The notes under the pieces are model-generated. The model did no database searches, was not told where the DNA came from, and saw nothing but the letters and a program-made list of their open reading frames with translations. Of a DNA stretch of 25,217 bases, positions 381-20,731 are shown piece by piece. Both the position numbers and the translations under genes were made by a program. The DNA is from a virus: the IMG/VR virus record IMGVR_UViG_3300027904_000001. One strand, 5' to 3'. How positions within the stretch are numbered: the stretch's first letter is position 1; every line of letters starts with the position of its first letter.

Positions 381-2603
381 TTGGACGTGAAATTGCCAAT
401 TGAACGAGGTACACAAGAAAGATATGACAGTTTAACTCCTGACCCGAGCAAATTGTACATTACAGAGGAACATATTTATGACGGAAATAAATTATTATAT
501 GAACAAGAAGTTGAACATTTAGACGACGACATAAGACATATAACTAATGATGAAAGAGAATATTGGAATAGTTTGGCATTCTCAGGTGGCGGAGGAGGGA
601 CGTCAGTCATTGAATGGAAACCGAGAGCAGAAAGAGTTGATTGGTGGTATCCAAATCCAATAGCTGAATTTCTTGGGAATAGAGCTTATTTTGCGAATGG
701 ATGTTACCATGAAGGCTATTTTTATATGGGTGGTGGGCATAGTGGTGATAGACATGCTCGTTTGAATTTGTTTAGCCGATATAATATATTTGAGAAACGA
801 TGGGAGATGTTACCTGATTCACTTTGGAATACTTATGCATATACCTCTTTTTATGGAAATAAAGAATATATATATGTAGTAAGTGGGCATTACACACCTG
901 ACCCTAGAAATGGGCTAAAAAGATATCATATTCCTACAAAACAATGGGAAAGACTTGCTAATGGCCCAGTGGCTAATATGAATAATAATAGAGGTGGATT
1001 TATCAATGATACTTTATATGTATTAACAGGAACATCTTTATATTCATATGACCCGGTATTAAATCAATGGTCAGGACCTTTGGCATCACCGGGATTTTCT
1101 ACGGATTATGCCTCTGTTGCTATATATCAAAATGAACTTTATGTATTTGGTGCTGTAACAGCGGGTCATGCAGCAAAATACAACCCAATAATGAATACCT
1201 GGACAACGTTAGTAAATGCTAGCACAACAAGCGTTCAAGGCTGGGGGTGTTTAATTGGTAGCAAAATTTATGTTATGGGGAATGCTACTAACTATAAAGT
1301 TTATGATATCCCTACTAATTCATGGACTAACTTAACTGCATTGCCTATAACTATATATCAGCGAGTGGGATTGACAGATGGGAATATTCTTTATTTTATA
1401 GGTGCGGATGCAAATTATACGGCAACGCTTATTCAAGACCCTTTAGTAAGTACAAGCGTATGGAATAGATTTGCATTGGCAGATGCATTATCTTCAATGG
1501 ACAGATGTTCGTTTGCAAGATATAAAGATAAAGTATTTATAGGCGGTGGTGAGTATACCCCTGGCCAATTAATTTCATTTAACCTAAAAACATACGAATT
1601 TGTGCATGAAGGAAATACTTATACAGAATTAACCGGTGGATGGGCTGAATTAAGACATGCCGCAGCATTTGAATATAATGAAGAATTATATTTTGTTGGC
1701 AACCTATCATCTTCAAATGTTTTTAGGAAGTATAATATAAATAACAGAAAATGGGAACAATTGCCTAATTTGCCGTTTAATGTGAGTGGTGCTACATATA
1801 AACTAGGATCTATTGTTTTAAATGATGAGGCTTATATATGTCAAGGACAAGTACCGCCATATAATAATTTTGCAAAGTATAATTTTTCGTTAAATCAATG
1901 GATATTGTTATCTCTAATTCCATGGCAAGCGAGTGGAGGGCATACTACACTTTTTATTTATAAAAATAAAATGTATAGTCAAGAAGGATTGAATATATGG
2001 CAATATAACGAACAAGAAGATACTTGGATATATGATAACGGTACAGTAACTGGAACGCGAAATACTCAGACTGTATCGGGAACTATAGCCGCCGCAGGCT
2101 TAGCTACTAGTCTTACGGGCATATTCAATGATGATAATCCCTTAGCTATCAATTCATTTGCACCGGGAGTAAATGCATCATCTATAGAAGATAATGGTAA
2201 GCTATATATTGTGTCTATGAATGCATCATTTTATCCTATCGAATATGATATTAATAAAAGAATTGGCCGGAGATTGCCCGTTTTTACATTAGCTTTGCAG
2301 GATAGCGGGGTATTTATTGACAATGATTGGTTATATGTGATTTCTCCTGTAGGATATGCAAGCAAAGGATACATTTATATATTTAAATATCATTTGCGTA
2401 GAATGTTGGAACCCGAGATGCCGATCGCAATAATGAACACCGAACAAACATTGTATTATGCATCAAGTCACGATGATTTGTTTTTGACTTTTAAAGGTGA
2501 AAAAATACCAACTGAAACATTTTGGAAGCCGCCAATTAATGGCATAATAATGACGGGCTGGTCAGAATCAGTAGAAGGTGTAGTTAGATTATTTTTATCA
2601 TAA
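381..2603 (+). CDS. Kelch-like tandem beta-propeller repeat protein, possibly a virion fibre or receptor-binding protein; paralog of 17353..19638
   Basis: TTG start at 381 with AAGGGG 5-10 nt upstream. There are about 10 repeats of the Kelch-like pattern (hydrophobic-Y-hydrophobic-G-G ... Y/F-N/D-P-x-T/N-x-W-x-x-L), for example YFYMGGG, LYVFGA, IYVMGN, YNPIMNTW, YDIPTNSW. The central and C-terminal parts align colinearly with the 17353..19638 protein at roughly 50-60% identity, while the N-terminal ~130 aa are unrelated. Confidence 0.8.
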   Translation: MDVKLPIERGTQERYDSLTPDPSKLYITEEHIYDGNKLLYEQEVEHLDDDIRHITNDEREYWNSLAFSGGGGGTSVIEWKPRAERVDWWYPNPIAEFLGNRAYFANGCYHEGYFYMGGGHSGDRHARLNLFSRYNIFEKRWEMLPDSLWNTYAYTSFYGNKEYIYVVSGHYTPDPRNGLKRYHIPTKQWERLANGPVANMNNNRGGFINDTLYVLTGTSLYSYDPVLNQWSGPLASPGFSTDYASVAIYQNELYVFGAVTAGHAAKYNPIMNTWTTLVNASTTSVQGWGCLIGSKIYVMGNATNYKVYDIPTNSWTNLTALPITIYQRVGLTDGNILYFIGADANYTATLIQDPLVSTSVWNRFALADALSSMDRCSFARYKDKVFIGGGEYTPGQLISFNLKTYEFVHEGNTYTELTGGWAELRHAAAFEYNEELYFVGNLSSSNVFRKYNINNRKWEQLPNLPFNVSGATYKLGSIVLNDEAYICQGQVPPYNNFAKYNFSLNQWILLSLIPWQASGGHTTLFIYKNKMYSQEGLNIWQYNEQEDTWIYDNGTVTGTRNTQTVSGTIAAAGLATSLTGIFNDDNPLAINSFAPGVNASSIEDNGKLYIVSMNASFYPIEYDINKRIGRRLPVFTLALQDSGVFIDNDWLYVISPVGYASKGYIYIFKYHLRRMLEPEMPIAIMNTEQTLYYASSHDDLFLTFKGEKIPTETFWKPPINGIIMTGWSESVEGVVRLFLS

Positions 2604-2618
2604 GAAAGGGGAGTATGA

Positions 2619-2972
2619 ATGTATACTTATGAAATATGGGACAAAAAGACATCTATCAATGGTGTGCCAGCGGATAAAGTACTTCAGCAATTTAATGATG
2701 TTGGTAGGGGTTACGTGTATCTTATTCTATTCAACGATCAAGTGATATCAATCCAGCCGCATGACCCTTATAAATCCGGATTTATTGCTATGACAAAAAC
2801 AACAGCTATAAAGCATGCCCAAAAACAAGTGGATGATCTTAATGAAGTATTAACAAAGGCTGATACTAAAGAAGAGTATGAATATGAAGATAGCTATAAA
2901 GATGATTTTACAGATGATTATGCATATACAAAAGATTATGATTATGAAATGAGCGATTATTATGAAATTTAA
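2619..2972 (+). CDS. small hypothetical protein with a strongly acidic Asp/Tyr/Glu-rich C-terminal tail
   Basis: GGGGAG RBS before the ATG at 2619. The C-terminal 40 aa read EEYEYEDSYKDDFTDDYAYTKDYDYEMSDYYEI. Its stop overlaps the next start, indicating translational coupling. Confidence 0.6.
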   Translation: MYTYEIWDKKTSINGVPADKVLQQFNDVGRGYVYLILFNDQVISIQPHDPYKSGFIAMTKTTAIKHAQKQVDDLNEVLTKADTKEEYEYEDSYKDDFTDDYAYTKDYDYEMSDYYEI

Positions 2973-3225
2973 GGATAAGAAGACAGGATATATAAAAGAT
3001 GCAAAAAATAATGAGTTTCTAATAATGTTATATTCAAAATATCCTGATAGATACGAATCATTAAAAGATGATTTAGATCCACCATCTAGACGAATTAACT
3101 ATCCTCCAAAAGGATCGCCAAAACATGAGTTATCAAGGATTGAACAAAAAAAAAATCTACCAAAATCAAGAACACGGAAGAAAAAATCATCAAGAGATGA
3201 CGGACATGACCCTTTAATAAATTAG
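2962..3225 (+). CDS. small, highly basic Lys/Arg-rich hypothetical protein
   Basis: The ATG at 2962 overlaps the upstream stop. The 87-aa product is rich in K and R (for example KSRTRKKKSSRDD). It lies directly upstream of the minor head protein gene. Confidence 0.55.
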   Translation: MKFKDKKTGYIKDAKNNEFLIMLYSKYPDRYESLKDDLDPPSRRINYPPKGSPKHELSRIEQKKNLPKSRTRKKKSSRDDGHDPLIN

Positions 3226-3233
3226 GTGATTAA

Positions 3234-4574
3234 ATGTTGACTGAAAGACAAATGATAACTTTACCCGCTCCAATTGTAAATAAATTTATAAGCTTAGAAA
3301 CGGATGTTATCAAAATGATAGCAAGCCGGATAAAAGCGATAGCTGAGTTAGATACTGAGGATTCTTACAAATTAGCCATAATCAAAAATATAGACAATGA
3401 TTTAGAATATATAAACAATCAATTAAATGATATATTAGCCGGGATAAAAGATGAAATTCATGAGATATATAGTAAAGCTATTGAATCTGAATACAATGAT
3501 TTTTTATCAGATATAGCGGAAAAGATTGTTTTATTATTGCCATTAATATCTGTTTTACCTTTTGCAAATATAATAGCTATTGTATCATCGATTATATCAA
3601 CATCTGCATTGCCATTCAGACGGAAAAGCAGTGAAATGCCTCTGGATACACGATCTATGCTTCAAAGGATAAAAGATCGTGTATTTCCACCCGGAATTGA
3701 GGAAGAGCCTACAGTAGAAAAGCGGTCTATATTCCAAAGATTAAGAGATTTTATTTTTCCATTTAGAAGAAATGATGAAATTCAAACTGCTATAAACATT
3801 GTAACGGATGAGACAACAAATCATATTAAAAATATAACTGAAACTATAGGGTTTCTTAATGTGAATAATGAGTTTAAATCATTACATGAGTTCTATGTAG
3901 ATATCTTAAACAAGGCTGTTACTAATATATATGAGGGGAAGGAAACGTTTTACAATGAGATGCGAAAGACTATTCGAATTATCGCAGATCGCGGATTAAC
4001 TCATGTAGAATATGAATCCGGTCGAAGATTAAGGCTTGATACTGCTGTAAGAACTGCTTTGAACGGCGGGAGATCAAGATTAGCACTTGAAGCAGCTAGA
4101 ATAAATGGTGAAAAATTCGGAGCAGATGGCATGGAAATTTCGTGGCATTCGGCACCAAGGCCATCACATGAATTTATGGGTGGACAACAATATAATATGG
4201 GTACGTTTAATCGAGATATAGTGCCTTTTTTGATGGAAGCAAATTGTTATCATCATGCGTTCCCGATAATTTTGGGTATTTCTATGCCTATTTTTACTCA
4301 AGAAGAAATTAAAGAAATGAATGCAAAAGACAGGGAATTAATGAGATATGGAGACAAAACATATACTAAATATGAAGCTGTACAAGTTCAACGAAAAATA
4401 GAAGCAGCAATCCGGAGAGAAAAAGACAGAGTAACAGCTTTTAAAGCAGCAGGTGATGATGAAGCTGCTAAAATTGCAAGAGCAAAAGCACGAGTATTAA
4501 ATAACCAATATAAAACATTTAGTCAAGCATTAGGGTTAGACATGTATCCTCAACGTACAGCAGGCGTGCTTTAA
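3234..4574 (+). CDS. phage minor head (head morphogenesis) protein, Mu F / SPP1 gp7-like domain
   Basis: AGGTGATTAA-ATG start context. Central motif DTAVRTALNGGRSRLALEAARINGEKFGADGMEISWHSAPRPSHEFMGGQQY ... ANCYHHAFP matches the Phage_Mu_F signature (RTxxxxG ... RxxH ... G ... NCxC/H). The C-terminus is predicted coiled coil. Confidence 0.8.
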   Translation: MLTERQMITLPAPIVNKFISLETDVIKMIASRIKAIAELDTEDSYKLAIIKNIDNDLEYINNQLNDILAGIKDEIHEIYSKAIESEYNDFLSDIAEKIVLLLPLISVLPFANIIAIVSSIISTSALPFRRKSSEMPLDTRSMLQRIKDRVFPPGIEEEPTVEKRSIFQRLRDFIFPFRRNDEIQTAINIVTDETTNHIKNITETIGFLNVNNEFKSLHEFYVDILNKAVTNIYEGKETFYNEMRKTIRIIADRGLTHVEYESGRRLRLDTAVRTALNGGRSRLALEAARINGEKFGADGMEISWHSAPRPSHEFMGGQQYNMGTFNRDIVPFLMEANCYHHAFPIILGISMPIFTQEEIKEMNAKDRELMRYGDKTYTKYEAVQVQRKIEAAIRREKDRVTAFKAAGDDEAAKIARAKARVLNNQYKTFSQALGLDMYPQRTAGVL

Positions 4575-4610
4575 TGAGAATCATTTTTTTTAATTAAGCA
4601 GGTGATTAAA

Positions 4611-5000
4611 ATGCATTTAACATATGATAATTATGTAGAACTTGGATTTGACATTATCCCGGAAGAAAATTTTGACAGATTCTCTGTAATGGCAAGTCTT
4701 TATGTGGATCGTATAACCATGAATCGGTTGTATTCTGAAAAGCCAAGTTATAATAATCTTTTAGGCATAGCTGAAATAGCTGATTTTTTTTACAGAGAAT
4801 ATCAAGCAGATTTGTTATTACAAGAACAGTTAGCTAGCAATAACGGAAGATTAATCAGCGGATTTAAAAATGATACCTATTCTGAAAGTTATGCAGTTGA
4901 TACGCGTAGTGAATCAGATAAAATAGCAGATAGAAATGCTAAATTGCGTGAATATCATAAATATTTTCAGTTATCACAACTTTATAGGGGATTCAGATAA
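4611..5000 (+). CDS. putative head-tail connector/adaptor protein (gp6/gp15-like)
   Basis: The ORF track starts at a GTG at 4602, but that GTG lies inside the AGGTGA Shine-Dalgarno (4600-4605). The ATG at 4611 is the likely start. Size (~130 aa) and position after the MuF-like gene fit a connector. Assignment is by position and loose motif similarity only. Confidence 0.45.
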   Translation: MHLTYDNYVELGFDIIPEENFDRFSVMASLYVDRITMNRLYSEKPSYNNLLGIAEIADFFYREYQADLLLQEQLASNNGRLISGFKNDTYSESYAVDTRSESDKIADRNAKLREYHKYFQLSQLYRGFR

Positions 5001-5431: not shown

Positions 5432-5440
5432 AGTGATTGA

Positions 5441-5821: not shown

Positions 5822-5836
5822 AGTTTTGTAAATGGG

Positions 5837-6295: not shown

Positions 6296-6297
6296 AA

Positions 6298-6843: not shown

Positions 6844-6860
6844 GAAAGGAATGCTAATCA

Positions 6861-7923: not shown

Positions 7924-8006
7924 TAATGTAAAGCAGGTGATTTAATATAGCAGCGGGGACAATTGAAATTTCGACTGTTCTTGACACAGCCGAATTAAAA
8001 TCGGCA

Positions 8007-11000: not shown

Positions 11001-12446
11001 GAATGGCTGACAAATGCTGCAAATATAATAAATGAGTTTTTTTCTAATCTTAGTACTGTTGCGGCCTCAGAATCACAAAGAATTATTGATAGTATAATAG
11101 AATGGTTTTCACAGCTTCCAACTAGAATATCGGAATGTTTACAAAATACAGTACAGCGATTTATTGAATTTTTTGCTAATATGGGAGCGACAGCTTCGTC
11201 AGAATCTCAAAATATTATTACAAATATAATAAATGCTTTTACTAATTTACCTAGTTTGTTAGCCGATATGGGAAGAAATGCAATACAAGGATTGGTTAAT
11301 GGGATTCAAGAACGAGCGGGAGCCGCTATTGCTGCTGTAAGAGATATTGCGTCCGGAATAGCAGATGGCTTTAGAAGCGTTATGAATATGCGGTCTCCAT
11401 CAAGAGTAATGCAAGAAATCGGAGAGTTTGTAGGTGAAGGTCTTGAAATTGGTATTGAAAATAGCGCAAAAAATATAATCGATTCCACTGAAGATATTGG
11501 TAATAATATAATAAAAAATTTGCAAGACACATCGGAAGAAACAGAAATTATAGGAAAATCATTTTTAAGTAATTTCGGGGATGGATTAACAAATACATCT
11601 GATTCTATAAAATCTATAGTTAATGATATCAGCTCTGCATTAGGTAAAGAATTTATGGAAAATCTTATTGATAATATGTCTGATGCATTTGAAAATGTCA
11701 AAAATATAATAAATCAACAATGGGATAATGTTAAGAGTATATCTAAAAGTGCTATTGATGAATTAAATACAAATTTAAAAGACACATTGAAAAGCATACA
11801 AGACAATTGGCGTTCAATATGGGAATCAATTAATAAATCATTTACGGAAACTTCAAACAGTATTAAAAATATAGCTAATAATATTGTTAATACTGTTAAG
11901 GACGCATTTAATAATAAATTGCAATATTTACAAAGTATAGACCTATATTCAATTGGGGCAAATATGATGCAAGGGCTTATGAATGGTATCATGAGCATGG
12001 CAAACAATATAATGAATTCAGTCCAAAACATAGCAAATAATATTATAAATACAATGCAAAGCATTTTACAAATAAGATCTCCTTCAAGAGTTGCTATGAC
12101 AATAGGTAAAGATTTTTCGTTAGGAATAGCAATAGGATTAGAAAAAGAAGCAGGACAAATAGAAGATAGTATTAATAATATAACAGATAGAATGTCTGAC
12201 ATTGATTTTACAGATATGTTTGCTAAAGGTAAAATTAATATGCCAAACATGACATTGCCACCCGATAAATTTGCACAAATTATGGCAAGCGGAACACAAG
12301 CATCAACTAGTACATCTATAGATAGAGGAATAACAATTAATTTTAATAATTATGCTCCAATTAATTCAGAATTAGATATAGAAATGATAATGCAACGGAT
12401 AGGAAATAGAGTCCGTGATGAAGAACGATCAAGGGGGTTAAACTAA
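8007..12446 (+). CDS. tail tape measure protein
   Basis: 1479 aa. The N-terminus (GNLITKGAAAVAGALVAIGTASLKTGMDFEREMKNLQAIMG ...) matches the TP901-family tape-measure core. It has long Ala/Gly/Ile-rich hydrophobic segments, three ~44-aa tandem repeats, and two copies of an RSPSRV-x3-IG motif. The true start may lie upstream near the strong Shine-Dalgarno at 7935-7940 (see finding). Confidence 0.9.
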   Translation: MDGLGNLITKGAAAVAGALVAIGTASLKTGMDFEREMKNLQAIMGITGEAAEIEMAQISEGIRKVAVDSGSSVIEIAANAKMLAEAGGDVNLMMAQLTHGVNLANATQTDMATTLDFLGSTMKTFGIEADDTQSVVDSFALVTSLANVELSQLGESYVNAGGSAAQAGLSIDDVNAVLITFANAGLKGGAAGTALNSVLKNLRTPTNTAAKELDRLGIALYEANGESRDMFDIMSDLEGALSNMTDEQRSRSEAIIFDSVAQKGWNMLMDEGIDAIVELSSELADSVNAFDGMGQAAGMAAIQSQSLSGMLNSLKAQFTEMGLLIYDQMEKPLKTALSGVLASMNELRESMVSGGLSDAIAKIGEGFALLVEVLVKLAVMALPTILGLLGGFADILGRVALAIVGVIEAIGDKFMSPEMADNIQKINEAFDRLKAALPEGDLIQLIADAFTILLSALIDIIVTVIPPILDFFTWIVDNFNTIAGLVIAVATGFAAFQIVTTIIPLIAGLSGAFAGFQLILAGWSSTIAMAGGILPALGGAIAALVSPIALVIGAIAALVAGFIYFYNTNEDFRNKVNEIWDNIKEFIVNAVIVIKDTIINIADSIKDAWVNMMSFLADIGVIDLIIDTWNNLKESIASIINSIKDIFTGLISHMSDSGAFEGLLNAFTSIWNAIKDFFATVIPAISELFTEHFSAIAEFITLVFTGIKNFLGSIFSVILTIIGVSLFGIFAFVTDIFSGIAAFLETHGETIKTILIVAWELAWATIQPILNFISEGIKLVGDMVKNTVDMISGILSGDWAKAWEGAKGILEATFNAIDLIFQTFKQIAINTFNVFKDDLIQLWETLKQTVTNKATELVTGVVEKFNSIKSDAIQAWENLKTSVINIVNELVSSITEFFNDLPYLIGYAIGVAAGLVVAGIVIMAEAFIDFITNDVPQFIDGIVEWFSQLPDRINEWLINTINNITEFFVNIVTMAESETQRIIESIITWFSQLPDRISEWLTNAANIINEFFSNLSTVAASESQRIIDSIIEWFSQLPTRISECLQNTVQRFIEFFANMGATASSESQNIITNIINAFTNLPSLLADMGRNAIQGLVNGIQERAGAAIAAVRDIASGIADGFRSVMNMRSPSRVMQEIGEFVGEGLEIGIENSAKNIIDSTEDIGNNIIKNLQDTSEETEIIGKSFLSNFGDGLTNTSDSIKSIVNDISSALGKEFMENLIDNMSDAFENVKNIINQQWDNVKSISKSAIDELNTNLKDTLKSIQDNWRSIWESINKSFTETSNSIKNIANNIVNTVKDAFNNKLQYLQSIDLYSIGANMMQGLMNGIMSMANNIMNSVQNIANNIINTMQSILQIRSPSRVAMTIGKDFSLGIAIGLEKEAGQIEDSINNITDRMSDIDFTDMFAKGKINMPNMTLPPDKFAQIMASGTQASTSTSIDRGITINFNNYAPINSELDIEMIMQRIGNRVRDEERSRGLN
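10836..11231 (+). repeat. three degenerate 132-bp (44-aa) tandem repeats inside the tape measure gene
   Basis: The units begin gaatggttttcacaattaccagatagaata (10836), acttggttttctcaattgcctgatagaata (10968) and gaatggttttcacagcttccaactagaata (11100). They encode EWFSQLPDRI(N/S)EWL ... ESQRII(E/D)SII. Confidence 0.8.
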
Positions 12447-12995
12447 TTGACACCTAATAGTTTTAATATTAATACACCAAATTTAAATAGTTTTGATACA
12501 TGGGGTATAAAAGTTATTATATACGATGTATTTAGTCCTAATAAGCGTAGTAGGCGGAAACAAATTCCGTTTAGACATGGTTCATATGACATGGGGTATG
12601 AAAAATATTATGATGACAGGAATTTAAGAATAGAATGTCATTTAACAAAAAAATTATCAAAGGCTGACTTTAGAGAAATAATATATGTTTTGTCTCAAAA
12701 AAGCAGCCTTTATTTTTGGGATGAGCCAGATAAATTTTATAGATGTGAATTATTTGATTCAGTGGATATTAATGTTTTCCCTCAAGAAATTGGACGTGTT
12801 TTTATATTGCCTTTTGTTTGTGAACCTTTTGCATATGGAAGAATGGAGACAATAAAATTTAATGCTGGCAAAAATCCTATTGAATATATAGGAACCGTGC
12901 AAACACCTACTATATTGATAATCAAAAATAATAATGATTTCCCAATTAGTAATATATTAATTACCGCTATAGAACAAATACGGGCTATAGGTTAG
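12447..12995 (+). CDS. distal tail protein (Dit), Sipho_tail family-like, short form
   Basis: TTG start directly after the tape measure stop, with AAGGGGG RBS. The pattern FRHGSYDMGYEKYYDDRNLRIECHL ... LYFWDEPDKFYRCELFD ... FILPFVCEPFAYG matches the Sipho_tail Dit signature (ipgrdG ... c.l ... fsdepdk.Y.a ... f.c.Pf.y). It is only 182 aa, so the usual C-terminal domain is missing. Confidence 0.65.
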   Translation: MTPNSFNINTPNLNSFDTWGIKVIIYDVFSPNKRSRRKQIPFRHGSYDMGYEKYYDDRNLRIECHLTKKLSKADFREIIYVLSQKSSLYFWDEPDKFYRCELFDSVDINVFPQEIGRVFILPFVCEPFAYGRMETIKFNAGKNPIEYIGTVQTPTILIIKNNNDFPISNILITAIEQIRAIG

Positions 12996-13005
12996 GAGGT
13001 AAGGA

Positions 13006-13794
13006 ATGCAAGCAACACACCATTTTGAAGAAATAATTCTTAATACATTTAATAATGTAACAGCTATGGGATTAAGCCAAGGATTTGTAGCATTATTTGC
13101 TAGTAATCCTACTGATACAGGGATAGCAGGAATTGAAATAAATTATCCAGGGTATGCAAGAATTCCGGTAACTTGGACACCACCATATGAAGCGCAAAAT
13201 AATAGTATAGAGATTGTTAATGTCAATGATTTATTATGGGAAGCATCACAATTTGATGTCGGTGAAGCGCGATTTATTGGTATATCTAATTCACAACCTG
13301 TTGGCTCTGGAAATTTATTCTTATGGGCTCCTTTATCAATTCCATTAGTAATTAGAGCAGGCAACCAACCAAGTATACATGCCGGAGATATAATGTTTAA
13401 TCTTGTTGGTGATACAAGTCGTGATTTTAGAGTTAGGATTATGAATATTCTACGAGGTCAAAATCTGAATGGGTTTATCCCTCATTTATGTTTGTTTGAC
13501 GGAGATCCTGAAGCAGGTGGCAATGAACTATCAGGCCAAAATTATAGTAGACCATTAATAAACTTTTCACAACCAGCAGTTCAAGTTAGCGGGCAAACAC
13601 AAATTCAGAATACTAATTTAATCAGATTTCCTGCACCACAAGCTGTTTGGGGCAATTGGGCATGGGATGGAATTAGGGATGCCGCAATTGGAGGTAATTT
13701 AGTAACAAAAGCTATCAATGCTATTCCCGAATTGATACAACGGAATTATATTCCACAAGTGCCCCCTGGTGATTATAGAATTGGTGTTAACTAA
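13006..13794 (+). CDS. hypothetical tail/baseplate structural protein
   Basis: AGGAGG RBS. 262 aa, sitting between Dit and Tal. No confident family assignment. Confidence 0.6.
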   Translation: MQATHHFEEIILNTFNNVTAMGLSQGFVALFASNPTDTGIAGIEINYPGYARIPVTWTPPYEAQNNSIEIVNVNDLLWEASQFDVGEARFIGISNSQPVGSGNLFLWAPLSIPLVIRAGNQPSIHAGDIMFNLVGDTSRDFRVRIMNILRGQNLNGFIPHLCLFDGDPEAGGNELSGQNYSRPLINFSQPAVQVSGQTQIQNTNLIRFPAPQAVWGNWAWDGIRDAAIGGNLVTKAINAIPELIQRNYIPQVPPGDYRIGVN

Positions 13795-14504
13795 TGGATG
13801 GTAATTTAACATTAAATCGATTTAATTTAACTCGATATAGTATGCCTGAAACGCCAATTATTGAAAGGAACTTCAGCCGGACAATAAATATGAATTTTAT
13901 GGCTGTAGCTGGCGGGCGATTATATTTAGATTTTAGTCGCAATATGAATACAAACTTTACTGGCAGAACAGATATGCATGCAGTAATAATATTTAAGCGA
14001 AATTTAAATATTAGTTTCAATTCACAAGTTGAAATGAATATGTATATGAACGCTTTGCGCAATATTAATAATAAATTTTTTGGCAATGCATATGCAGGCA
14101 AAAAAATAAATTTTAGTAGAAATATAGAGTCTGAGTTAAAGTCTAATATACATGTTGGCAAAATTATTCCATTAATGCGCAACTCTCAAACTAGATTTGA
14201 AGCATGTGCGCATGCTGGGAAATATATCAATTTTGATAAAAATATACAAAGTATCTTTACTAGTTTTGTCGCAATGGGATTATCTCGTCATGCAGTTGCT
14301 ATTATTAATGTTGATTTAAATCCAGGTGAAGAAATACGGATAGATTCTGATATATTCACTGCTATGAAAGGCGATAAGAATATATTACATTTATATAATG
14401 GTGATTGGGTATATATCAATAGAAATACTGTTATATTACAAACAGAAGCTGGCTCAGGTGGAGATTTAGATATAGAATTAGTATATGTAACTAGATATTT
14501 ATGA
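13794..14504 (+). CDS. hypothetical structural protein with about five tandem ~22-aa repeats (FSRNxNxNF ... consensus)
   Basis: TAATG overlap with the upstream stop. Repeats read RNFSRTINMNFMAVAGG / FSRNMNTNFTGRTDMHA / FKRNLNISFNSQVEMN / KKINFSRNIESELKSN / KYINFDKNIQSIFTSF, followed by a non-repetitive C-terminal ~70 aa. Confidence 0.6.
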   Translation: MDGNLTLNRFNLTRYSMPETPIIERNFSRTINMNFMAVAGGRLYLDFSRNMNTNFTGRTDMHAVIIFKRNLNISFNSQVEMNMYMNALRNINNKFFGNAYAGKKINFSRNIESELKSNIHVGKIIPLMRNSQTRFEACAHAGKYINFDKNIQSIFTSFVAMGLSRHAVAIINVDLNPGEEIRIDSDIFTAMKGDKNILHLYNGDWVYINRNTVILQTEAGSGGDLDIELVYVTRYL

Positions 14505-14505
14505 G

Positions 14506-16671
14506 GTGATGCGATTGCAGGAGCCAAGATTAAGAGTTTACAATTTGCAACGGCAATTGACTGGGATTTTGCAAAATGCTTATAATATGAAAGAAGATTT
14601 AGTTATAAATGCAATAAGTCATTTTGAATTCTCATTGCCTTTAGATGATCACAAAAATAATTTGTGTAAACCATTCCATTATATTAGATATGATAACGGT
14701 CAATTATATCGAATAATGCCATCTGAACAAGAAATAGATGAGACAGGCGGCATACAATACAAATGTGAACATGTATTAGCTTTGCTTATTGGTAGAGCTT
14801 TAGCGGGAGAACATGTCGTTGGTAATATTGGGATGCCTACTGATGTAGTTATAAATTGGGTACTTGATAAGCAAAATAAAACATATGATTTATTTAGTAA
14901 ATCATGGAATATTGATCCAAGGAAATCAGTTGATTGGGTTCTGGGCGAATGTGATTTTTCAAGGCAATTTGAATATGGCTGGCAAAAAGAAAATTGTTTA
15001 AGAGCATTATTTAGTATAGCAAATCGATTTGTTGAAAATTACATTTGGACATTTGATACAAATGTATATCCTTATATAATAAATCTAAAAAAAATAGACC
15101 AAACTATAAACCCTGAAATGTATATTCGTGGTGGCAAAAATCAAATTAAATTAGTAAAGTCTCAAGACCCTACATCTATTGTTACAAGAATAATCCCTTA
15201 TGGTGTCGGAGAAGGTGATAATCAACTTACTGTTAATGAAGTTAATAATAATATTTCATATATTGAAAGTCCATCTCATATTATTGATGAATACGGGTTG
15301 ATTGAAACACAATGGATTGATAGGCGTTATGAAGACCCTCAATCATTATTGGAATCTGCCCAAGTAATGTTAGAAGCAATGCAAGAACCTTATGAAGAAT
15401 ATAAAGTAGATTTTACCATACTTGGCAAAAGTAATTTCGATATCCCTGAACTTGGCAAAATAGTAGAATTGATCGATTTAAATAAAAGAACATTTATTAC
15501 AGGCATAAAATATGATTACGAAGAAATATTAAATTCGCAATTAACGATTGCTAACAAATCACGTAATATAGCGGGCACTGTAGCTGAGTTAATGGATAGG
15601 CAACGTATAGAGATGGCATATGCACAGGGTAGTACTACAATATTTCAAGTAGATGCACGGGATAATGCGCAAGATAATTTCCCTTGTATTCTTAGAATAA
15701 TGTTTTTTAGCGATTTAATTATAATTAATAAAGTTGTTTTGGATATAGAAATAACTGCAGCCATAATACCGTTTACTTCAACCGGTGGTGGCGGTGGTCA
15801 AACTGTAACCCAATCAAATACAACATCCAGCGGAGCAAGTAGTACTACAACTACAAATAGTGGCGGTTCTTCCAGCCCTACTACAGCAAGTGGCGGTTCT
15901 TCCAGCCCTACTACAGCAAGTGGCGGGGGAACATCAACCAGTACAGAAAGTGGAGGCGGGCAGACCAGCGGGTCAAGTTCAATATCCACGACAGGGAGCA
16001 ACCCTACTCAAACTAGTAGTACAACTACCCAACAATCATTAACTAGCCATGATGCTGGACAAGTGCAACGCGGTAATGCAACAACTCGCAACTTGAATCC
16101 TGATAGTACTGGCGGTGCCAGTACCGGAGTTGCACATACGCATAGCTTGATGCAACATACTCATACAGTGGAAGTCACTACGTATCATACGCATAATGTA
16201 ACAATCCCTGGTCATAGTCACACAGTACCGAGTCATGAGCATGGGATGGCACATACTCATAATGTAGCCGCCCATAGCCATAGTTTTAGTGTACCAAGCC
16301 ATACGCATAGTGTAACAATAGCGGCTCATACACATACTGTAACTATACCTAGCCATACTCATGAAATGGCACATACTCATTCAATCGCACATACACATTC
16401 AATACCTGACCATACGCATTTATTAAGTCCGATTATATCGTATTCAGGTAATCCAACCTTTTTTAGATTGTTTGTAAATGGGATACACCGACAAACAGTT
16501 GATGGTCGAACATTACAAAGAGATATTGTCCCATTTTTAGTAGATGATAAAGGTTATTTGACTCGTGATATGTATCATAGAATAGAAGTGTATCCAAATA
16601 CAGCTGGCAATGTACGAATGTCTGTAAGCGTAAAAGCATTTAATCAAAGTCGCGGACCACATTCAGTTTAA
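14506..16671 (+). CDS. tail-associated lysin / tail tip protein (Tal) with a C-terminal Ser/Thr/Gly linker and His-x-His repeat region
   Basis: GTG at 14506 or ATG at 14509, directly after the upstream stop. The first ~400 aa sit in the Tal position after Dit and are the expected size of a prophage-tail/Tal N-domain. Residues ~425-510 are an S/T/G/P low-complexity linker. Residues ~545-640 contain about 13 H-x-H motifs (AHTHSL, HTHTV, HSHTV, HEHGM, HTHNV, HSHSF, HTHSV, HTHTV, HTHEM, HTHSI, HTHSI, HTHLL). Confidence 0.8.
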   Translation: MMRLQEPRLRVYNLQRQLTGILQNAYNMKEDLVINAISHFEFSLPLDDHKNNLCKPFHYIRYDNGQLYRIMPSEQEIDETGGIQYKCEHVLALLIGRALAGEHVVGNIGMPTDVVINWVLDKQNKTYDLFSKSWNIDPRKSVDWVLGECDFSRQFEYGWQKENCLRALFSIANRFVENYIWTFDTNVYPYIINLKKIDQTINPEMYIRGGKNQIKLVKSQDPTSIVTRIIPYGVGEGDNQLTVNEVNNNISYIESPSHIIDEYGLIETQWIDRRYEDPQSLLESAQVMLEAMQEPYEEYKVDFTILGKSNFDIPELGKIVELIDLNKRTFITGIKYDYEEILNSQLTIANKSRNIAGTVAELMDRQRIEMAYAQGSTTIFQVDARDNAQDNFPCILRIMFFSDLIIINKVVLDIEITAAIIPFTSTGGGGGQTVTQSNTTSSGASSTTTTNSGGSSSPTTASGGSSSPTTASGGGTSTSTESGGGQTSGSSSISTTGSNPTQTSSTTTQQSLTSHDAGQVQRGNATTRNLNPDSTGGASTGVAHTHSLMQHTHTVEVTTYHTHNVTIPGHSHTVPSHEHGMAHTHNVAAHSHSFSVPSHTHSVTIAAHTHTVTIPSHTHEMAHTHSIAHTHSIPDHTHLLSPIISYSGNPTFFRLFVNGIHRQTVDGRTLQRDIVPFLVDDKGYLTRDMYHRIEVYPNTAGNVRMSVSVKAFNQSRGPHSV
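15861..15926 (+). repeat. perfect 30-bp tandem duplication (2.2 copies) in the Tal linker
   Basis: tggcggttcttccagccctactacagcaag occurs at 15861-15890 and 15891-15920, followed by tggcgg. It encodes GGSSSPTTAS twice. Confidence 0.9.
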
Positions 16672-16683
16672 AGGAGTGCCAGA

Positions 16684-16902
16684 ATGGAGGTTTTTAAAAT
16701 AGATAATTTTAATTTTCGAGATGGATTCAATGTATATTTGGACGGACAATTATTGTCAGATGTTTATGCATTGCAAATTTCTGTGAATAGAGAACAAGAC
16801 AGTGAATTTGATAAAAACAAAATAACTGTTGCATATAGAATTAATGGGCATGAAGCCTTAATTTCAGCTAAGTTAGGAGCGATAAGTTTTGGCAGAACTT
16901 AA
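16684..16902 (+). CDS. small hypothetical protein (72 aa)
   Basis: AAGGAG RBS 8 nt before the ATG. It sits between Tal and the fibre genes. Confidence 0.5.
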   Translation: MEVFKIDNFNFRDGFNVYLDGQLLSDVYALQISVNREQDSEFDKNKITVAYRINGHEALISAKLGAISFGRT

Positions 16903-17356
16903 ACCAATGTATAGAGGCAGAGCCTATAGTAAAAAAACATTTCTTGCACAGCCTTTGAATGAAACAGCTACCACAATCTACGTCATAGATAGCTCTGTTT
17001 TGCCTCCAGCCCCGAACATGGCAACAATAGGTGATGAACGAACCGCAGAAACTATTCGTTATGGATTAATTATTGGTAATGAATTAAGGAATGTTACAAG
17101 AGCAGCCGAAGAAGAAAGCGTTGCACAAGCTTGGCAACCTGACACTCCTATTGCAAACTATATTACCGCTAAACTATTAAATAATATGGCCGATAACATT
17201 GATACTATAAATGAAGAAATAACCGAAGAAATAGGTTTAAAAAATCATATTATAGATCCTATGCCGCATAGATTCGTTGCTAATAATATTAATTATCAAT
17301 ATGGATTTTCAGTTGATAATACTGGTGGATTAATTTTAAAATATGAGGTGGTTTGA
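16889..17356 (+). CDS. hypothetical tail/baseplate protein
   Basis: TTG at 16889 or ATG at 16907. Its stop TGA overlaps the ATG of the next gene (ATGA). About 150-155 aa. No family recognised. Confidence 0.5.
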   Translation: MAELKPMYRGRAYSKKTFLAQPLNETATTIYVIDSSVLPPAPNMATIGDERTAETIRYGLIIGNELRNVTRAAEEESVAQAWQPDTPIANYITAKLLNNMADNIDTINEEITEEIGLKNHIIDPMPHRFVANNINYQYGFSVDNTGGLILKYEVV

Positions 17357-19638
17357 TGCCCGAAATTAGAGTAGCAAGACAAGATACGTCAGAAACAATC
17401 AAAACTATAGTTGAAACAATAGATGAAAAACAAGGCAATTACGCAGAAACGCCTCATGAAAATGGCAGAACCCAATTTTCATTGTTAAAATATGTCACAA
17501 CTACTTTATCATCTGTTAAAGATTTTTTTGATGCAAAAATATCTTCAAGGGCGTCAAGTATTGAGGCTCAGGCTATTAAAGATAAAATAGGCTCTCCGAA
17601 TCCTACACAAGGGAACATGACAAATGTTATGAATGGATTGAAATTAATTCATGATGACATGCCGGAAGCAAAAACTACTGTCTTAGAATGGGAATCGAGT
17701 CCAGTTGAAGTAGGATTATGGGATCCAATTCCAATCCAAACATTTGAACTTTATAGGAACAGACATATGACGGGGGCTATTGGTTGTTATTATAAAGGAT
17801 ATTTTTATATAGGCGGGAATAGCACAAAACAGAATTCATTTATGAGATATAAAGCAGAAACATTAAACGATAGATGGGAAATATTGCCTGATGCACCCGT
17901 CACATTGAATTTATATAATTTCTGTTTTTCTTATAATGATCATATTTATTGGTTAGGTTCATATCCAGCAACATTGAATCAATTTTGGCGGTATAATATA
18001 AACTTAAGAATATGGGAGCGAATGGCTGATACCCCTGTAGCATCTGCATATTATGGCCGTGGAGCATTCATAAATGGGATATTATATGTAGTAGGTATGA
18101 CTACAGTACCTAACTCTTTATATTCTTATAACCCAATTACTAATACATGGTCATCTCCGTTAGCTGCTCCTGGATTTAATGCGAGTAATGCAGCCGTCGC
18201 AGTATACAATAATGAACTATATGTATTTGGTACAACCGTGAATCAATCAGTAAAATATAATCCATCAACAAACATTTGGATACCATTAGCCAATCCTGTA
18301 ACAACAAGTATTGGCGGTTGGGGTTGCCTTATAGATAGTAAAATTTATATAATGGGGCCAACTACAACATTTAAATCTTATGATATACCTAATAATACAT
18401 GGGAAGCATTACCCGCTCTACCTATTACAATTGCTAGTCGCTTGGGACTTACTGACGGAACACTATTATATTATTTTGGGTTAGATGCTAATTATTTAGC
18501 TGTCGCATCCCAAAATCCAAAATTGACTACAACATGGTCATATTTATGGACAGGATACATGCCTACATTACCAAGTAATCCTTCGTTTGTACGTAAAGAC
18601 AATATCGTTTATATAGGCGGTAGTGCTACTAACCTAGGGCAATTGGCGACATTCGATTTAATTTCGCATGATATTGGATGGGAGATACCTGCAACAAGCC
18701 AATTAATTGCACCACCAGCTGATTTAAGAAATGCATGTGCTTTTGAATATAAAAATGAATTATATTTTATTGGAGCTACTGTTGCAACAGCCGGCACAGG
18801 CAATATATTCAGAAAATATAATTTGGTTACTAAGATATGGGCTAATTTGCCTAATGTACCCGGAAATACATTAAGAAGTCAAGCAATAGTAAATAATGAC
18901 GAAGTATATGTTTTACAAGGGAATACGGGCGGTACGGGATTTTGGAAATATAATTTTGCTAATAATGTATGGATTACGCTTCCGGCTACCGTTGCAATGC
19001 TTCATGTTGTTGCTGAATTGTATGATGACAAAATATATACAATTCAAGTTAACAATGTTAGAACATATGACTTTAGTGATGGGAATTGGCGATTAATAAC
19101 TGATCGTGCAATAGCCGCCCGGTTACAAACAACAGGCGTTGCAGGTACGGCCATAGTAGGTCTATTTGAAGGAGTAATTCCTATTGTTATTTTAACTCCT
19201 GGAAATATTCCTAGTAGTACTCTTGATGAAGATGATATTTATATAATTACGGATACTGCAAGTCAACCTTTGTTAAAATATTCTATTCCTGACAGGATAG
19301 GCAAACCAATATCTGTTCCACCGGTAGCACCTCAAAACGGAGGTCTTTTTGTTATGAACGATTGGTTGTATTTAGTATCACCTATCGGAGTAGCGGGAGC
19401 AGGATACCCAAATATTTATAGATGTAAATTGCGTGAAATGGCTTGGGAGCCAGACATTTTGACTCCAATAAAGCAAGGACAAGAAATATTTTATACAACT
19501 ACTAATAATAATTTATTTTTAACTTTTGACAATGTTAGAATAGCGTCAAATACAAAGTGGCAAGCGTATAATGATGGATTTATTGTGACTGATTGGTCTA
19601 AATCCGTTAAAGGCAAAATAAGAGCATTTTTAACCTAA
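17353..19638 (+). CDS. Kelch-like tandem beta-propeller tail fibre / receptor-binding protein candidate; paralog of 381..2603
   Basis: The likely start is the ATG at 17356 with GAGGTGG RBS. Kelch-like repeats include YFYIGGN, LYVVGMT, LYVFGTT, IYIMGP, YNPITNTW, YNPSTNIW, YDIPNNTW. It sits in the canonical position of receptor-binding proteins, after Tal and before lysis. It shares blocks with 381..2603, for example LYSY(D/N)P..N.WS.PLA.PGF ... NELYVFG ... GWGCLI.SKIY.MG ... YDIP.N.W ... LPITI ... GLTDG ... NDWLY..SP.G. Confidence 0.8.
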   Translation: MMPEIRVARQDTSETIKTIVETIDEKQGNYAETPHENGRTQFSLLKYVTTTLSSVKDFFDAKISSRASSIEAQAIKDKIGSPNPTQGNMTNVMNGLKLIHDDMPEAKTTVLEWESSPVEVGLWDPIPIQTFELYRNRHMTGAIGCYYKGYFYIGGNSTKQNSFMRYKAETLNDRWEILPDAPVTLNLYNFCFSYNDHIYWLGSYPATLNQFWRYNINLRIWERMADTPVASAYYGRGAFINGILYVVGMTTVPNSLYSYNPITNTWSSPLAAPGFNASNAAVAVYNNELYVFGTTVNQSVKYNPSTNIWIPLANPVTTSIGGWGCLIDSKIYIMGPTTTFKSYDIPNNTWEALPALPITIASRLGLTDGTLLYYFGLDANYLAVASQNPKLTTTWSYLWTGYMPTLPSNPSFVRKDNIVYIGGSATNLGQLATFDLISHDIGWEIPATSQLIAPPADLRNACAFEYKNELYFIGATVATAGTGNIFRKYNLVTKIWANLPNVPGNTLRSQAIVNNDEVYVLQGNTGGTGFWKYNFANNVWITLPATVAMLHVVAELYDDKIYTIQVNNVRTYDFSDGNWRLITDRAIAARLQTTGVAGTAIVGLFEGVIPIVILTPGNIPSSTLDEDDIYIITDTASQPLLKYSIPDRIGKPISVPPVAPQNGGLFVMNDWLYLVSPIGVAGAGYPNIYRCKLREMAWEPDILTPIKQGQEIFYTTTNNNLFLTFDNVRIASNTKWQAYNDGFIVTDWSKSVKGKIRAFLT

Positions 19639-19834: not shown

Positions 19835-20023
19835 AAAAATAAAAAAAATATTTGGAATACAGTCACCTAGTGAAAAGACTTTTGAGGCATATTTAAAAAT
19901 AGGACAATATTTTAAAAGGCTTGAATGCAGGTGTAAACGGTACTAGAATATTAACGCCTGAAGAAGATGCCGGCGTATCCTCAGCAAAAAGAGATAAAGA
20001 TGAGGAATAAATATTGTTTTAGA

Positions 20024-20719: not shown

Positions 20720-20731
20720 ATAATATTTATA

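Follow-up and report, generated by a model that had tools for sequence, protein, structure and literature searches.

Two diverged double-Kelch-propeller proteins in a phage of an uncultured Firmicutes bacterium: a tail fibre and a putative auxiliary adhesin encoded among head genes

Why should a phage encode two versions of one large Kelch protein, one beside its lysis genes and the other among its head genes? The question is raised by a window of 25,217 nucleotides, the whole stretch of DNA analysed here, from a phage whose host is an uncultured Firmicutes bacterium. Kelch A (381..2603, 740 aa from a TTG start) and Kelch B (17353..19638, 761 aa from TTG) are both encoded on the plus strand, as are all other features described below. 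The two reading frames are present where the first-pass annotation had placed them, and public gene calls start both slightly later, at GTG 387 (738 aa) and ATG 17356 (760 aa).

The proposed paralogy of the two proteins is borne out by formal pairwise alignment. BLASTP aligned residues 74-740 of Kelch A with 108-761 of Kelch B at 39% identity and 56% positives over 682 aligned residues (E 2e-147), which is far beyond chance. The N-termini had been described as unrelated over about 130 aa; they are indeed without similarity (BLASTP, best HSP E 42), but they measure 73 aa in Kelch A and 107 aa in Kelch B. Identity peaks in the first blade run of Kelch A, at 21-25 of 40 residues per 40-residue segment of Kelch B, and a second HSP pairs the second half of Kelch A with the first propeller of Kelch B (E 6e-5). 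Strand positions are 54% conserved compared with 30-44% for loops, and one loop class takes most of the indels. The C-terminal beta-sandwich has 25 of 75 identical positions over Kelch B 687-761, free of indels. With loops diverged at 56-70% of their positions, a ligand common to both proteins is not established by the alignment. Among 73 family-invariant positions derived from four orthologues, Kelch A retains 44 and Kelch B 50.

The suggestion of a Kelch beta-propeller fold holds as well, by Pfam scores above the cutoff and by structure prediction of Kelch B. Kelch_6 exceeds the gathering score in both proteins (75.2 and 61.0 bits, cutoff 25.3), and sequence matches to solved Kelch domains range from E 3e-18 to about 1e-9. 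The predicted model of Kelch B has a mean pLDDT of 65.8 and a pTM of 0.50, with blade regions mostly at 63-91, and the model of Kelch A on its own is poor (mean pLDDT 49.5). In Foldseek the Kelch B model reached a TM of 0.77-0.79 against designed six-bladed Kelch proteins, and 600-766 columns were aligned to the two-propeller glycan-sensor domains BT4663 and BT4673, with low TM. Both bodies are thus predicted to comprise two six-bladed Kelch beta-propellers and a small C-terminal beta-sandwich.

In Kelch A, an N-terminal module (aa 1-73, 381..599) ends in the Gly-rich linker SGGGGG. It is followed by a first run of six predicted blades (aa ~106-352, 696..1436), placed from the low-confidence model and the blade pattern with Kelch_6 at 149-193, by a second run (aa ~377-684, 1509..2432) with a low-confidence interruption at aa 552-598, and by about 56 C-terminal residues (2433..2600) homologous to the beta-sandwich of Kelch B. 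Kelch B begins with a region predicted at low confidence to be helical (aa 1-107, 17353..17673; helices 11-26, 45-66, 73-79 and 89-101), which resembles the N-terminus of an uncultured relative, P0004 (27% identity, E 4e-7). Two predicted six-blade runs (aa 143-398 and 411-676, 17779..19380) precede the C-terminal beta-sandwich (aa 687-761, 19411..19635), which is modelled at pLDDT 78-91 and conserved across the family. The C-terminal ~170 aa, earlier set apart from the propeller repeats, do not form one separate domain; in the Kelch B model they are made up of 35 low-confidence residues (584-618), the last two blades (621-676) and the ~75-aa beta-sandwich.

Kelch B lies at the distal end of the tail module. 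The tape measure gene (8007..12446) is followed by tail-tip genes (12447..16671) for a Dit N-domain protein (182 aa), a Gp80-like protein (262 aa), a 236-aa protein and Tal (721 aa, Prophage_tail), and the virion module ends at the lysis genes (20787..22705; Amidase_2 endolysin, a 244-aa protein and holin). This is a very rare family: a search of 1.84 billion representatives yielded the full architecture in just four further clusters at 50% identity. Their full-length uncultured members, P0004, P0006, P0008 and P0010, are encoded in the prophage-like loci L094, L089, L009 and L092, and each of the four genes follows Tal, with the lysis genes or the end of the prophage beyond it. The family order, TMP-Dit-Gp80-like-Tal-(anchor)-Kelch-lysis, is the position of Kelch B, and all four relatives score higher against Kelch B than against Kelch A (217/182, 196/143, 160/125 and 189/156 bits). 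Related loci also keep the tail-tip gene order around their Kelch genes, mostly unchanged across the three relatives compared gene by gene. Homologous Dit, Gp80-like and Tal genes lie upstream in all three of these; L092 alone also has homologues of the 236-aa and 72-aa genes there. Because all four relatives share its position, Kelch B is, on gene order, the orthologous (ancestral) distal tail fibre and probably the receptor-binding protein, which agrees with its initial placement at a tail-fibre site.

In all four relatives the Kelch body is double and the C-terminal beta-sandwich is present, with identity of 23-30% over the whole length of the body. P0004 has extra Kelch blades (1051 aa), and P0008 has a different N-terminal motif in common with its two upstream neighbours. 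Unlike the phage described here, none has a second copy with an A-type N-terminus in the loci examined, which end short of the head regions, and none of the four Kelch genes itself lies in a head region.

Kelch B appears to be mounted through a protein of its own. A 155-aa anchor or adaptor (16889..17356) is encoded just upstream, its stop codon overlapping the Kelch B ATG by one base (TGATG), and its first ~105 aa match the N-terminal domain fused to the Kelch body in P0006 and P0010 (35-36% identity, E 7e-12 and 1e-13). Anchor and body are fused in these two relatives and are separate genes here and in L094, where a 155-aa anchor gene (34% identity, E 1e-16) occurs with P0004. The helical N-terminus of Kelch B may dock onto the anchor, which would in turn plug into the Dit/Tal tip complex.

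At the other end of the window, the supposed truncated structural gene upstream of Kelch A (2..364) is the last part (C-terminal 120 aa) of a gene for a 299-aa fibre-like protein, complete in L003 (6847..7746). Over its N-terminal ~90 aa this protein is a homologue of the Kelch A N-terminus. The two N-termini share 37% identity (E 2e-7; 44% in the alignment) and the motif LPIxxG..YDxL..LYIT ... HITxxERxxWNS. This common module, together with an anchor of Kelch B that is separate here and fused in two relatives, strengthens the earlier proposal that attachment ends were swapped on a common body. A check of what the Kelch A module might bind gave no known capsid-, portal- or neck-binding domain. 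It had no match in Pfam, PDB or NCBIfam and is unrelated to the profile of the 155-aa anchor (hhalign probability 4%), and its weak resemblances are to two tail-type families, phrog_27373 'tail protein' (E 0.0018) and Pfam Phage_tail_C, the latter at 20.9 bits against a cutoff of 23.7. Other fibre-like proteins contain the central domain of the 299-aa protein too, and so does a myophage baseplate-module protein encoded between the hub and Collar/Gp10_C genes.

Kelch A is 40% identical to Kelch B and 23-29% identical to other family members, and a search of 1.84 billion cluster representatives found no A-type protein outside this phage. These comparisons show a lineage-specific duplicate, so far seen only in this phage. 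The duplication, within the phage lineage, probably involved a cassette of a Kelch gene plus a small downstream gene, with the N-terminus of Kelch A then exchanged for the ~70-aa module also present in its 299-aa neighbour. The small gene after Kelch A encodes a 117-aa protein (2619..2972; phrog_11837), a candidate assembly factor. In L094 the gene behind P0004 encodes an 83-aa homologue of it (47% identity over 36 aa, E 2e-7), and a further homologue is gp20 of phage phiCD6356, whose gene directly follows that of the Kelch protein gp19 (36% identity over 69 aa). The small gene after tail Kelch genes stands at the position that XkdW holds in PBSX.

The surroundings of Kelch A are broadly those of the first-pass annotation, except that two small genes, the 117-aa one and one for an 87-aa basic protein (2962..3225), separate it from the MuF-like minor capsid gene (3234..4574; Phage_min_cap2, 175 bits). 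All of these belong to a block of about 7 kb that separates the major capsid gene from the head-tail adaptor; in the nearest cultured relative the adaptor directly follows the capsid gene. Neither a promoter nor a terminator signal exceeding shuffled controls sets the block apart from the head genes. As Kelch A is co-oriented and tightly packed with late head genes, we infer a second virion site for it and the 299-aa protein, most probably on the capsid or neck. Both of their genes follow the major capsid gene, as the head-fibre gene of phi29 does. Both Kelch proteins would then be fibre-type adhesins with one body and different ends, Kelch B as the distal tail fibre and Kelch A as an auxiliary adhesin at a head or neck site, a reading to which we give about an even chance. 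By analogy with collar and head fibres elsewhere, Kelch A and the 299-aa protein might make reversible first contact with cell-surface glycans. The glycan is an assumption, because enzymes and protein-binding domains may also be built as Kelch propellers. Virion incorporation, docking partners, the attachment site of Kelch A and the ligand are all what we infer from such comparisons, and Kelch A is tied to the head by gene position only. The same block holds the MuF-like gene, which is displaced from its usual spot just after the portal gene (compare the order in Acutalibacter phage Fontainebleau), and therefore the position of Kelch A may reflect rearrangement and not assembly logic. The tail-tip ancestry of Kelch A and the baseplate occurrence of the 299-aa central domain fit a tail location equally well, and this counts against a head site.

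Several known phages bear on this reading. In phiCD6356, a Clostridioides difficile siphophage, gp19 is a 'kelch repeat-containing protein' that, like Kelch B, comes from the far end of the tail module, ahead of holin and endolysin (order TMP, tail family protein, minor tail protein, gp18, gp19, with gp20 and XkdX associated), and its gp20 corresponds to the 117-aa gene here. At 381 aa, gp19 holds one propeller at most, with repeat-level similarity only (E 3e-5), and phiCD6356 is without a second Kelch copy in its head region; no paper discussing gp19 function was found in the literature searched. A beta-propeller receptor-binding platform at the tail tip of a Gram-positive siphophage, as proposed for Kelch B, is present in staphylococcal phi11 Gp45 and Brochothrix NF5 gp18 (PMC12917162). 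Lactococcal phages carry related carbohydrate-binding modules on collar, tail tube, Dit and baseplate via different N-terminal attachment domains, and their collar fibre (NPS) is an ancillary, low-affinity adhesin (PMC6669499). The NPS/BppA-type proteins of TP901-1, Tuc2009 and the 936 group therefore resemble the present case in placing a related binding module at several virion sites, although there location and binding were experimentally shown and here they are predictions from sequence and models. The fold also differs, with a BppU N-terminal beta-sandwich, coiled coil and BppA module in place of Kelch propellers, and no BppU-like N-domain was detected in the Kelch proteins by domain and profile search. 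Head fibres of phi29 (gp8.5) and P68 are trimeric, stand on the capsid and aid adsorption or positioning (PMC9863714); these are podophages, unlike the phage here, the distal domains are not propellers, and no sequence similarity was detected. Such head-mounted fibres, and a TP901-1 collar expressed with the capsid, make the earlier statement that Kelch A is 'not a fibre position' too strong (PMC9863714, PMC6669499). By this analogy a Kelch version of related modules at several virion sites is backed by precedent, and the initial interpretation is partly supported, its underlying observation being confirmed.

A tail location is the most serious alternative, though we consider it rather unlikely: Kelch A and the 299-aa protein would form a second tail or baseplate fibre set (side fibres or an alternative receptor-binding protein) whose genes reached the head region by rearrangement. 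The particle would then bear two different Kelch fibres at its tail end, with a widened or switched host range. Kelch A coming from a tail-tip cassette and retaining the tail-type small downstream gene, the baseplate-module homologue, the tail-type weak matches of the N-terminal module and a rearranged head region (terminase, besides the displaced MuF, is apart from portal) all suit this idea, as do consecutive fibres with a common N-terminal plug in tail modules such as that of L009. It leaves unexplained why the N-terminus of Kelch A is unrelated to those of both Kelch B and the anchor; moreover, the other family members are all tail-tip encoded, so the duplicate could have stayed there, and the block is packed tightly in the head operon. 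We find it improbable that Kelch A is instead a soluble late protein outside the virion that, for example, serves as a decoy, masks receptors, prevents superinfection or acts as an enzyme on a cell-surface sugar. Its structural annotation does consist of weak PHROG matches and nothing further, but phrog_16120 'virion structural protein' matches both copies, the gene sits inside the structural operon, the fibre-type N-terminal module and Gly linker are common to another fibre-like protein, and mutarotase matches all fall far under their cutoffs. Kelch-like proteins of jumbo myophages are virion components, CBB_552 of Pectobacterium phage CBB having been found in particles by mass spectrometry (PMC5259590). 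With those of PhiPA3 and PS119XW, CBB_552 gives the best BFVD fold matches and the sole matches in the cultured-phage collection, although these giant myophages infect Gram-negative hosts and the similarity is at repeat level (27-30% over about 20% of the query).

Still less probable is a functionless passenger, a duplicated tail-fibre gene in a rearranged block drifting toward loss. Kelch A is known from one phage lineage only and is somewhat more diverged than Kelch B at the family-invariant positions, but it keeps an intact 740-codon frame behind the ribosome-binding site AAGGGG and Kelch motifs above the Pfam cutoff. Long divergence from Kelch B has left no stop codon or frameshift, and the excess conservation of strands over loops is what structural constraint predicts. 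Very unlikely, finally, is a chimeric contig that joined two related phages inside the tail genes and so brought together A and B from different genomes. The physical link is seen only in the window and in an 89-kb metagenomic contig, and in a second sample head and tail-tip halves lie on separate contigs with breaks in the tape-measure gene and Tal; the NCBI locus tags FWC41_00255 (299-aa gene) and FWC41_00495 (Kelch B) are also 48 steps apart, against 19 genes here. Nevertheless, one assembly covers the entire region (89,136 bp), Kelch B is also present on a public contig of 89,217 bp, and composition is uniform across the window. The second sample matches each half base for base, its overlapping contigs being 100% identical to the region, and even on a chimeric contig Kelch A would remain in the head module.

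The window is a co-directional late operon of a siphophage-like element and sits within an 89,136-bp metagenomic contig (ERZ27257344). In public records, its proteins appear as hypothetical proteins of a 'Firmicutes bacterium' MAG, and the phage is uncultured. The upstream flank of the window was retrieved to read the gene order. The head part runs from portal, scaffold, and major capsid protein through genes for a 90-aa and a 299-aa protein to Kelch A (381..2603, 740 aa), a 117-aa and an 87-aa protein, and a MuF-like minor capsid protein. Adaptor and connector genes, the tail tube region, the TMP, and the Dit N-domain follow, and the tail tip continues with a Gp80-like protein, a 236-aa protein, Tal, a 72-aa and a 155-aa protein, Kelch B (17353..19638, 761 aa), and a 59-aa protein. 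The order ends with an HNH endonuclease, endolysin, a 244-aa protein, and holin. Contigs from a second sample match each half without mismatch. Since they stop short of bridging the tape-measure region, the linkage of Kelch A and Kelch B in one genome depends on the long contig. In NCBI, the 299-aa gene carries locus tag FWC41_00255 and Kelch B FWC41_00495, a distance of 48 tag steps compared with 19 genes on the contig; the MAG assembly may order or split this region differently. No Rfam family or tRNA was detected by scans of the window.

The paralogy of the two Kelch proteins, proposed in the first-pass annotation, was confirmed by pairwise alignment, which gave 39% identity over 682 residues (E 2e-147) and begins at A74/B108. 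Before this point the N-termini are unrelated, as had been suggested, but they comprise 73 and 107 aa rather than about 130 aa. Both ORFs are present, although public gene calls begin at GTG 387 and ATG 17356. The C-terminal 170 aa or so, previously described as a shared block, are mostly further propeller in the predicted model of Kelch B.

The proposed beta-propeller fold is likewise supported by Pfam Kelch motifs above the gathering thresholds, by sequence matches to solved Kelch domains, and by the predicted model of Kelch B. Kelch_6 scored 75.2 bits in Kelch A and 61.0 bits in Kelch B (Pfam cutoff, 25.3), and Kelch_4, Kelch_2, and Kelch_1 likewise exceed the Pfam cutoff in Kelch A. Solved Kelch domains were matched by phmmer with E values from 3e-18 to about 1e-9. 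The structure of Kelch A predicted from a two-sequence alignment was too poor for use (mean pLDDT 49.5), and Kelch B was modeled from a six-sequence family alignment with a mean pLDDT of 65.8 and a pTM of 0.50, its blades mostly reaching 63-91. The model comprises a helical low-confidence N-terminus (aa 1-105), a conserved hairpin (aa 109-125), six four-stranded blades (aa 143-398), four further blades (aa 411-581), a low-confidence stretch (aa 584-618), two last blades (aa 621-676), and a confident C-terminal beta-sandwich (aa 687-761). Six four-stranded antiparallel blades are predicted that would close into a propeller as in the Kelch superfamily, and the model supports a 'double Kelch propeller' architecture. 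No phage receptor-binding protein appeared among the listed best PDB matches of this model. The best matches in a viral structure library were jumbo-phage Kelch proteins, some of which are annotated as virion proteins. Kelch domains have been described as unusual for phages, with reports mainly from giant phages, in one case on a virion protein (PMC5259590). In phi11 Gp45, a five-bladed platform lies between a coiled-coil stem and tower domains, an arrangement different from that found here, and the five-bladed platform of phi11 and NF5 is an analogy only (PMC12917162).

Identity with the sialic-acid mutarotase NanM/YjhT was considered and rejected, since all scores are below the cutoff and the fold alone is in common. 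Neither Kelch copy reached the NCBIfam or Pfam cutoffs, with 27.5 and 55.9 bits for TIGR03548 (cutoff 243), 16.9 and 19.8 bits for PRK14131 (cutoff 416), 20.1 bits for TIGR03547 (cutoff 256), and 21.9 and 28 bits for Pfam NANM (cutoff 45).

The ligands of Kelch propellers are proteins or sugars, and a glycan is assumed here by analogy. Between Kelch A and Kelch B, strands are 54% identical and loops 30-44%; of 27 indel positions in the strands and the loops between them, 17 belong to a single loop class. Face-specific loop divergence gave no clear signal for the same or different ligands, and the two copies need not have identical specificity.

A full HMMER scan of 1.84 billion representatives was needed to detect relatives. 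It returned thousands of generic Kelch proteins and found the whole architecture in four other clusters only, represented by the full-length uncultured proteins P0004, P0006, P0008, and P0010. The family, defined by a double Kelch propeller plus beta-sandwich, consists of five 50%-identity clusters (six proteins) among these representatives. Word-indexed protein searches with Kelch B and with the six-sequence family alignment returned Kelch B itself only. Among 50,697 cultured phage records there was no relative past Kelch-repeat similarity: the window DNA and the Kelch A, 299-aa, and 155-aa proteins were unmatched, and Kelch B matched jumbo-phage Kelch repeats only. In viral-contig scans, the alignment of both copies yielded one distant jumbo-phage Kelch match, and P0010 and the A-type N-terminal module yielded none. 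A species-genome scan gave generic Kelch proteins only, and a metagenome scan gave one true relative (locus L009) amid 80 generic Kelch matches.

In the loci of all four relatives (L094, L089, L009, and L092, carrying P0004, P0006, P0008, and P0010, respectively), the Kelch gene stands at the distal end of the tail module, directly followed by an endolysin gene, a gene for a small membrane-type protein, or the end of the prophage. TMP, Dit, Gp80-like, and Tal proteins homologous to those of the window occur in the three loci compared (L089, L092, and L094); L092 additionally has homologues of the 236-aa and 72-aa genes. The position in L009 was read only as past unidentified tail-side genes and ahead of an amidase. 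Kelch B and the four relatives are thus encoded beyond the TMP, Dit, and Tal genes (in L009, beyond tail-side genes) and ahead of lysis or the prophage end, and the earlier placement of the second copy in a receptor-binding or tail-fibre position is borne out by gene order here and in the relatives. Kelch A, whose gene is flanked by the regions encoding the major capsid protein and the head-tail adaptor, does not occupy such a position. Because all four relatives score higher against Kelch B than against Kelch A, Kelch B is taken as the orthologue. It is probably a distal tail fibre and receptor-binding protein, and this is the best-supported part of our interpretation. Receptor-binding proteins decide which bacteria a phage infects and, to our knowledge, are almost unknown for phages of uncultured gut Firmicutes.

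Some relatives' loci show further peculiarities. Besides an S24-type repressor and a few small genes, L092 (1..13127) contains a short TMP-like gene encoding 773 aa, the tail-tip genes, the Kelch fibre, and an amidase; head genes are absent from the 10 kb shown, and the locus could be a defective prophage or else a tail-only element resembling F-type tailocins. In L094, TMP-like, Sipho_tail, and Prophage_tail genes (850, 245, and 765 aa, respectively) occur a second time at 13486..19342, directly past P0004 and its small gene, representing either a duplicated tail-tip module or tandem elements. In L009 (5631..10492), the motif PPTE.NH.VRL.D recurs at the N-terminus of three consecutive genes (245 aa, 631 aa, and P0008), and the 631-aa and Kelch ORF translations are near-identical over roughly their first 38 residues. 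It seems that several distal proteins use one plug here, a parallel to the pair of Kelch A and the 299-aa protein.

The anchor of Kelch B appears to be encoded separately. The 155-aa ORF (16889..17356, + strand) has a stop codon overlapping the Kelch B ATG by one base (TGATG). Its product shares 35-36% identity with the N-terminal ~105 residues of P0006 and P0010, which carry this domain fused to the Kelch body, and 34% with the product of a separate 155-aa gene upstream of P0004. The helical N-terminus of Kelch B resembles that of P0004, the other split member. Judged from these alignments, the family occurs in fused (P0006 and P0010) and split (here and L094) forms, from which we infer that the 155-aa protein would be the piece attaching the fibre to the tail tip and that Kelch B docks on it. 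A conserved N-terminal anchor is combined with a variable distal part, and N-termini are exchangeable among family members, which upholds the earlier idea of a shared body with swapped attachment ends. When the 155-aa protein was compared with Pfam, PHROGs, NCBIfam, and PDB profiles in search of an attachment domain, only coiled-coil noise or sub-threshold matches emerged. These features define a very rare tail-fibre family with conserved gene context and a separable (fused or split) anchor module. Kelch B is followed by an unrelated 59-aa ORF (19655..19834) and lacks a small downstream gene of the Kelch A type.

Kelch A and Kelch B are mutual closest relatives, with 40% identity to each other and 23-29% to other members. 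No A-type protein was found elsewhere in the 1.84 billion representatives or the viral-contig scans, and together these results point to a duplication within this phage lineage. The 117-aa ORF after Kelch A is 47% identical over 36 aa to the 83-aa gene that follows P0004. A further homologue is gp20 of the C. difficile siphophage phiCD6356, which lies directly 3' of the tail-located 'kelch repeat-containing protein' gp19 and 5' of XkdX. The duplicated unit therefore appears to have taken in the small downstream gene along with the Kelch gene. The gp19/gp20 pair, a tail-located Kelch protein followed by a small gene, is the closest cultured precedent, and no paper discussing its function was found in the literature searched. 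Small proteins starting MY..IWDK.T.INGV follow Kelch genes in three unrelated contexts (window 2619..2972; L094 13172..13423; L101 9001..9372, which is phiCD6356 gp20) and may be fibre assembly factors. Kelch A itself looks functional: of 73 positions that do not vary among the four orthologues it has kept 44 (Kelch B, 50), and its strands are better conserved than its loops.

The first ~70 residues of Kelch A appear to have been swapped for a module common to the 299-aa protein, composed of LPIxxG..YDxL..LYIT, a short helical stretch, and HITxxERxxWNS. The gene upstream of Kelch A had been regarded as a truncated structural gene; it is indeed truncated by the window edge (2..364), but the full gene (L003 6847..7746) encodes the 299-aa fibre-like protein, whose N-terminal ~90 aa are in common with Kelch A. 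The central domain of this protein recurs in P0152 (L098, a myophage baseplate-module protein), P0153, and P0154, among which P0153 (L095) is a lone chromosomal gene with a collagen-like N-terminus. Homology between the A-type module and the 155-aa anchor was rejected (hhalign probability 4%). Nothing related to the module was found in Pfam, PHROGs, NCBIfam, or PDB, and searches for an attachment domain in the Kelch A N-terminus and the 299-aa and 90-aa proteins gave only coiled-coil noise or sub-threshold profile matches. Both the 90-aa and the 299-aa protein end in IGTF, and the similarity of their C-termini is weak (score 45 compared with 31 +/- 5 for shuffles, reached by 10 of 500 shuffles). 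Together, these data document a duplication by which a binding body moved in among the head genes and acquired a new anchor.

The head region is rearranged compared to Acutalibacter phage Fontainebleau, the nearest cultured relative by capsid and MuF proteins. The Fontainebleau order is terS, terL, portal, MuF, scaffold, capsid, and adaptor, with the adaptor directly after the capsid gene, whereas here a block of ~7 kb (90-aa, 299-aa, Kelch A, 117-aa, 87-aa, and MuF genes) separates capsid from adaptor. The MuF-like gene (3234..4574) is placed after the capsid gene, not after the portal. No large terminase was found in the 6 kb upstream of the portal (L100 1..6320), where RepA_N and HTH_36 genes are located. 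Promoter and terminator scans around Kelch A gave no signal over shuffled controls between the block and the head genes.

Encoded with the head genes and carrying a non-tail anchor, Kelch A would sit on the head or neck. The tail ancestry of its cassette and the evident rearrangement of the head region would also suit a second tail fibre, an ordinary dual-fibre arrangement in an unusual genomic place. We regard this as the less likely reading. The head or neck is favored by co-expression with head genes, by a type of anchor that differs from the one at the tail, and by two precedents, the head fibres of phi29 and P68 (PMC9863714) and the TP901-1 collar, which is expressed with the capsid (PMC6669499). 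The best explanation is a composite, with Kelch B as tail fibre and Kelch A as auxiliary adhesin on the head or neck, although we would put it at an even chance. Only tentatively can the same kind of double-Kelch adhesin be placed at both particle ends, held by the 155-aa adaptor at the tail and by a ~70-aa plug at the capsid or neck, and it is similarly doubtful that this plug would also mount a different second fibre, the 299-aa protein. If Kelch A is mounted on the head or neck, it would be the first Kelch-propeller head or neck fibre and a clear case of a receptor-binding body copied from tail to head by anchor exchange alone. Such a natural example of re-mounting a binding module would bear on host-range engineering and two-step adsorption.

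The position of Kelch A (capsid gene, 90-aa, 299-aa, Kelch A) is compatible with a phi29-type head fibre, but no capsid-binding domain was recognised in it and its N-terminus has no homologue elsewhere. The closest concept is the lactococcal system, where different N-terminal domains mount related modules; BppA-type carbohydrate-binding modules occur on the baseplate, Dit, tail tube, and collar (PMC6669499). The lactococcal NPS/BppU fibre combines an N-terminal BppU-like beta-sandwich, a trimeric coiled coil, and a C-terminal carbohydrate-binding module. In contrast, neither a BppU-type nor any other known domain was detected at the N-terminus of Kelch A or the 299-aa protein, which have a short helical stretch and Gly linker only, and the likeness of Kelch A to this fibre would be functional. 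What is new is a rare, uncharacterised fibre family with a modular anchor, one copy of which has been relocated to the head region.

Other features of the operon were also observed. Dit-like function is apparently spread across several genes at 12447..14504. They encode a 182-aa protein with the Sipho_tail N-domain, a 262-aa protein in which the Gp80-type repeat (Pfam 'Podophage GP4 fiber I protein gp80') occurs twice, and the 236-aa protein, which has no assigned family. Counterparts of the 182-aa and 262-aa proteins are present in L089, L092, and L094, and one of the 236-aa protein in L092. A free-standing HNH endonuclease gene (20165..20719) lies between the tail-fibre and lysis genes. The ~330 nt before it lack a forward ORF of at least 60 aa and overlap a reverse-strand 63-aa ORF (19981..20172); a terminator-like hairpin (20731..20754) follows the gene, and the region 19835..20754 has no Rfam match. 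The lysis genes (20787..22705) encode an endolysin (Amidase_2), the 244-aa protein, and a holin, opposite to the common holin-then-endolysin order. Past these genes, a 150-aa ORF (23118..23570) weakly matches phrog_5767, a phage sigma-factor family (E 2e-5), and reverse-strand genes start just beyond it, at 23725.
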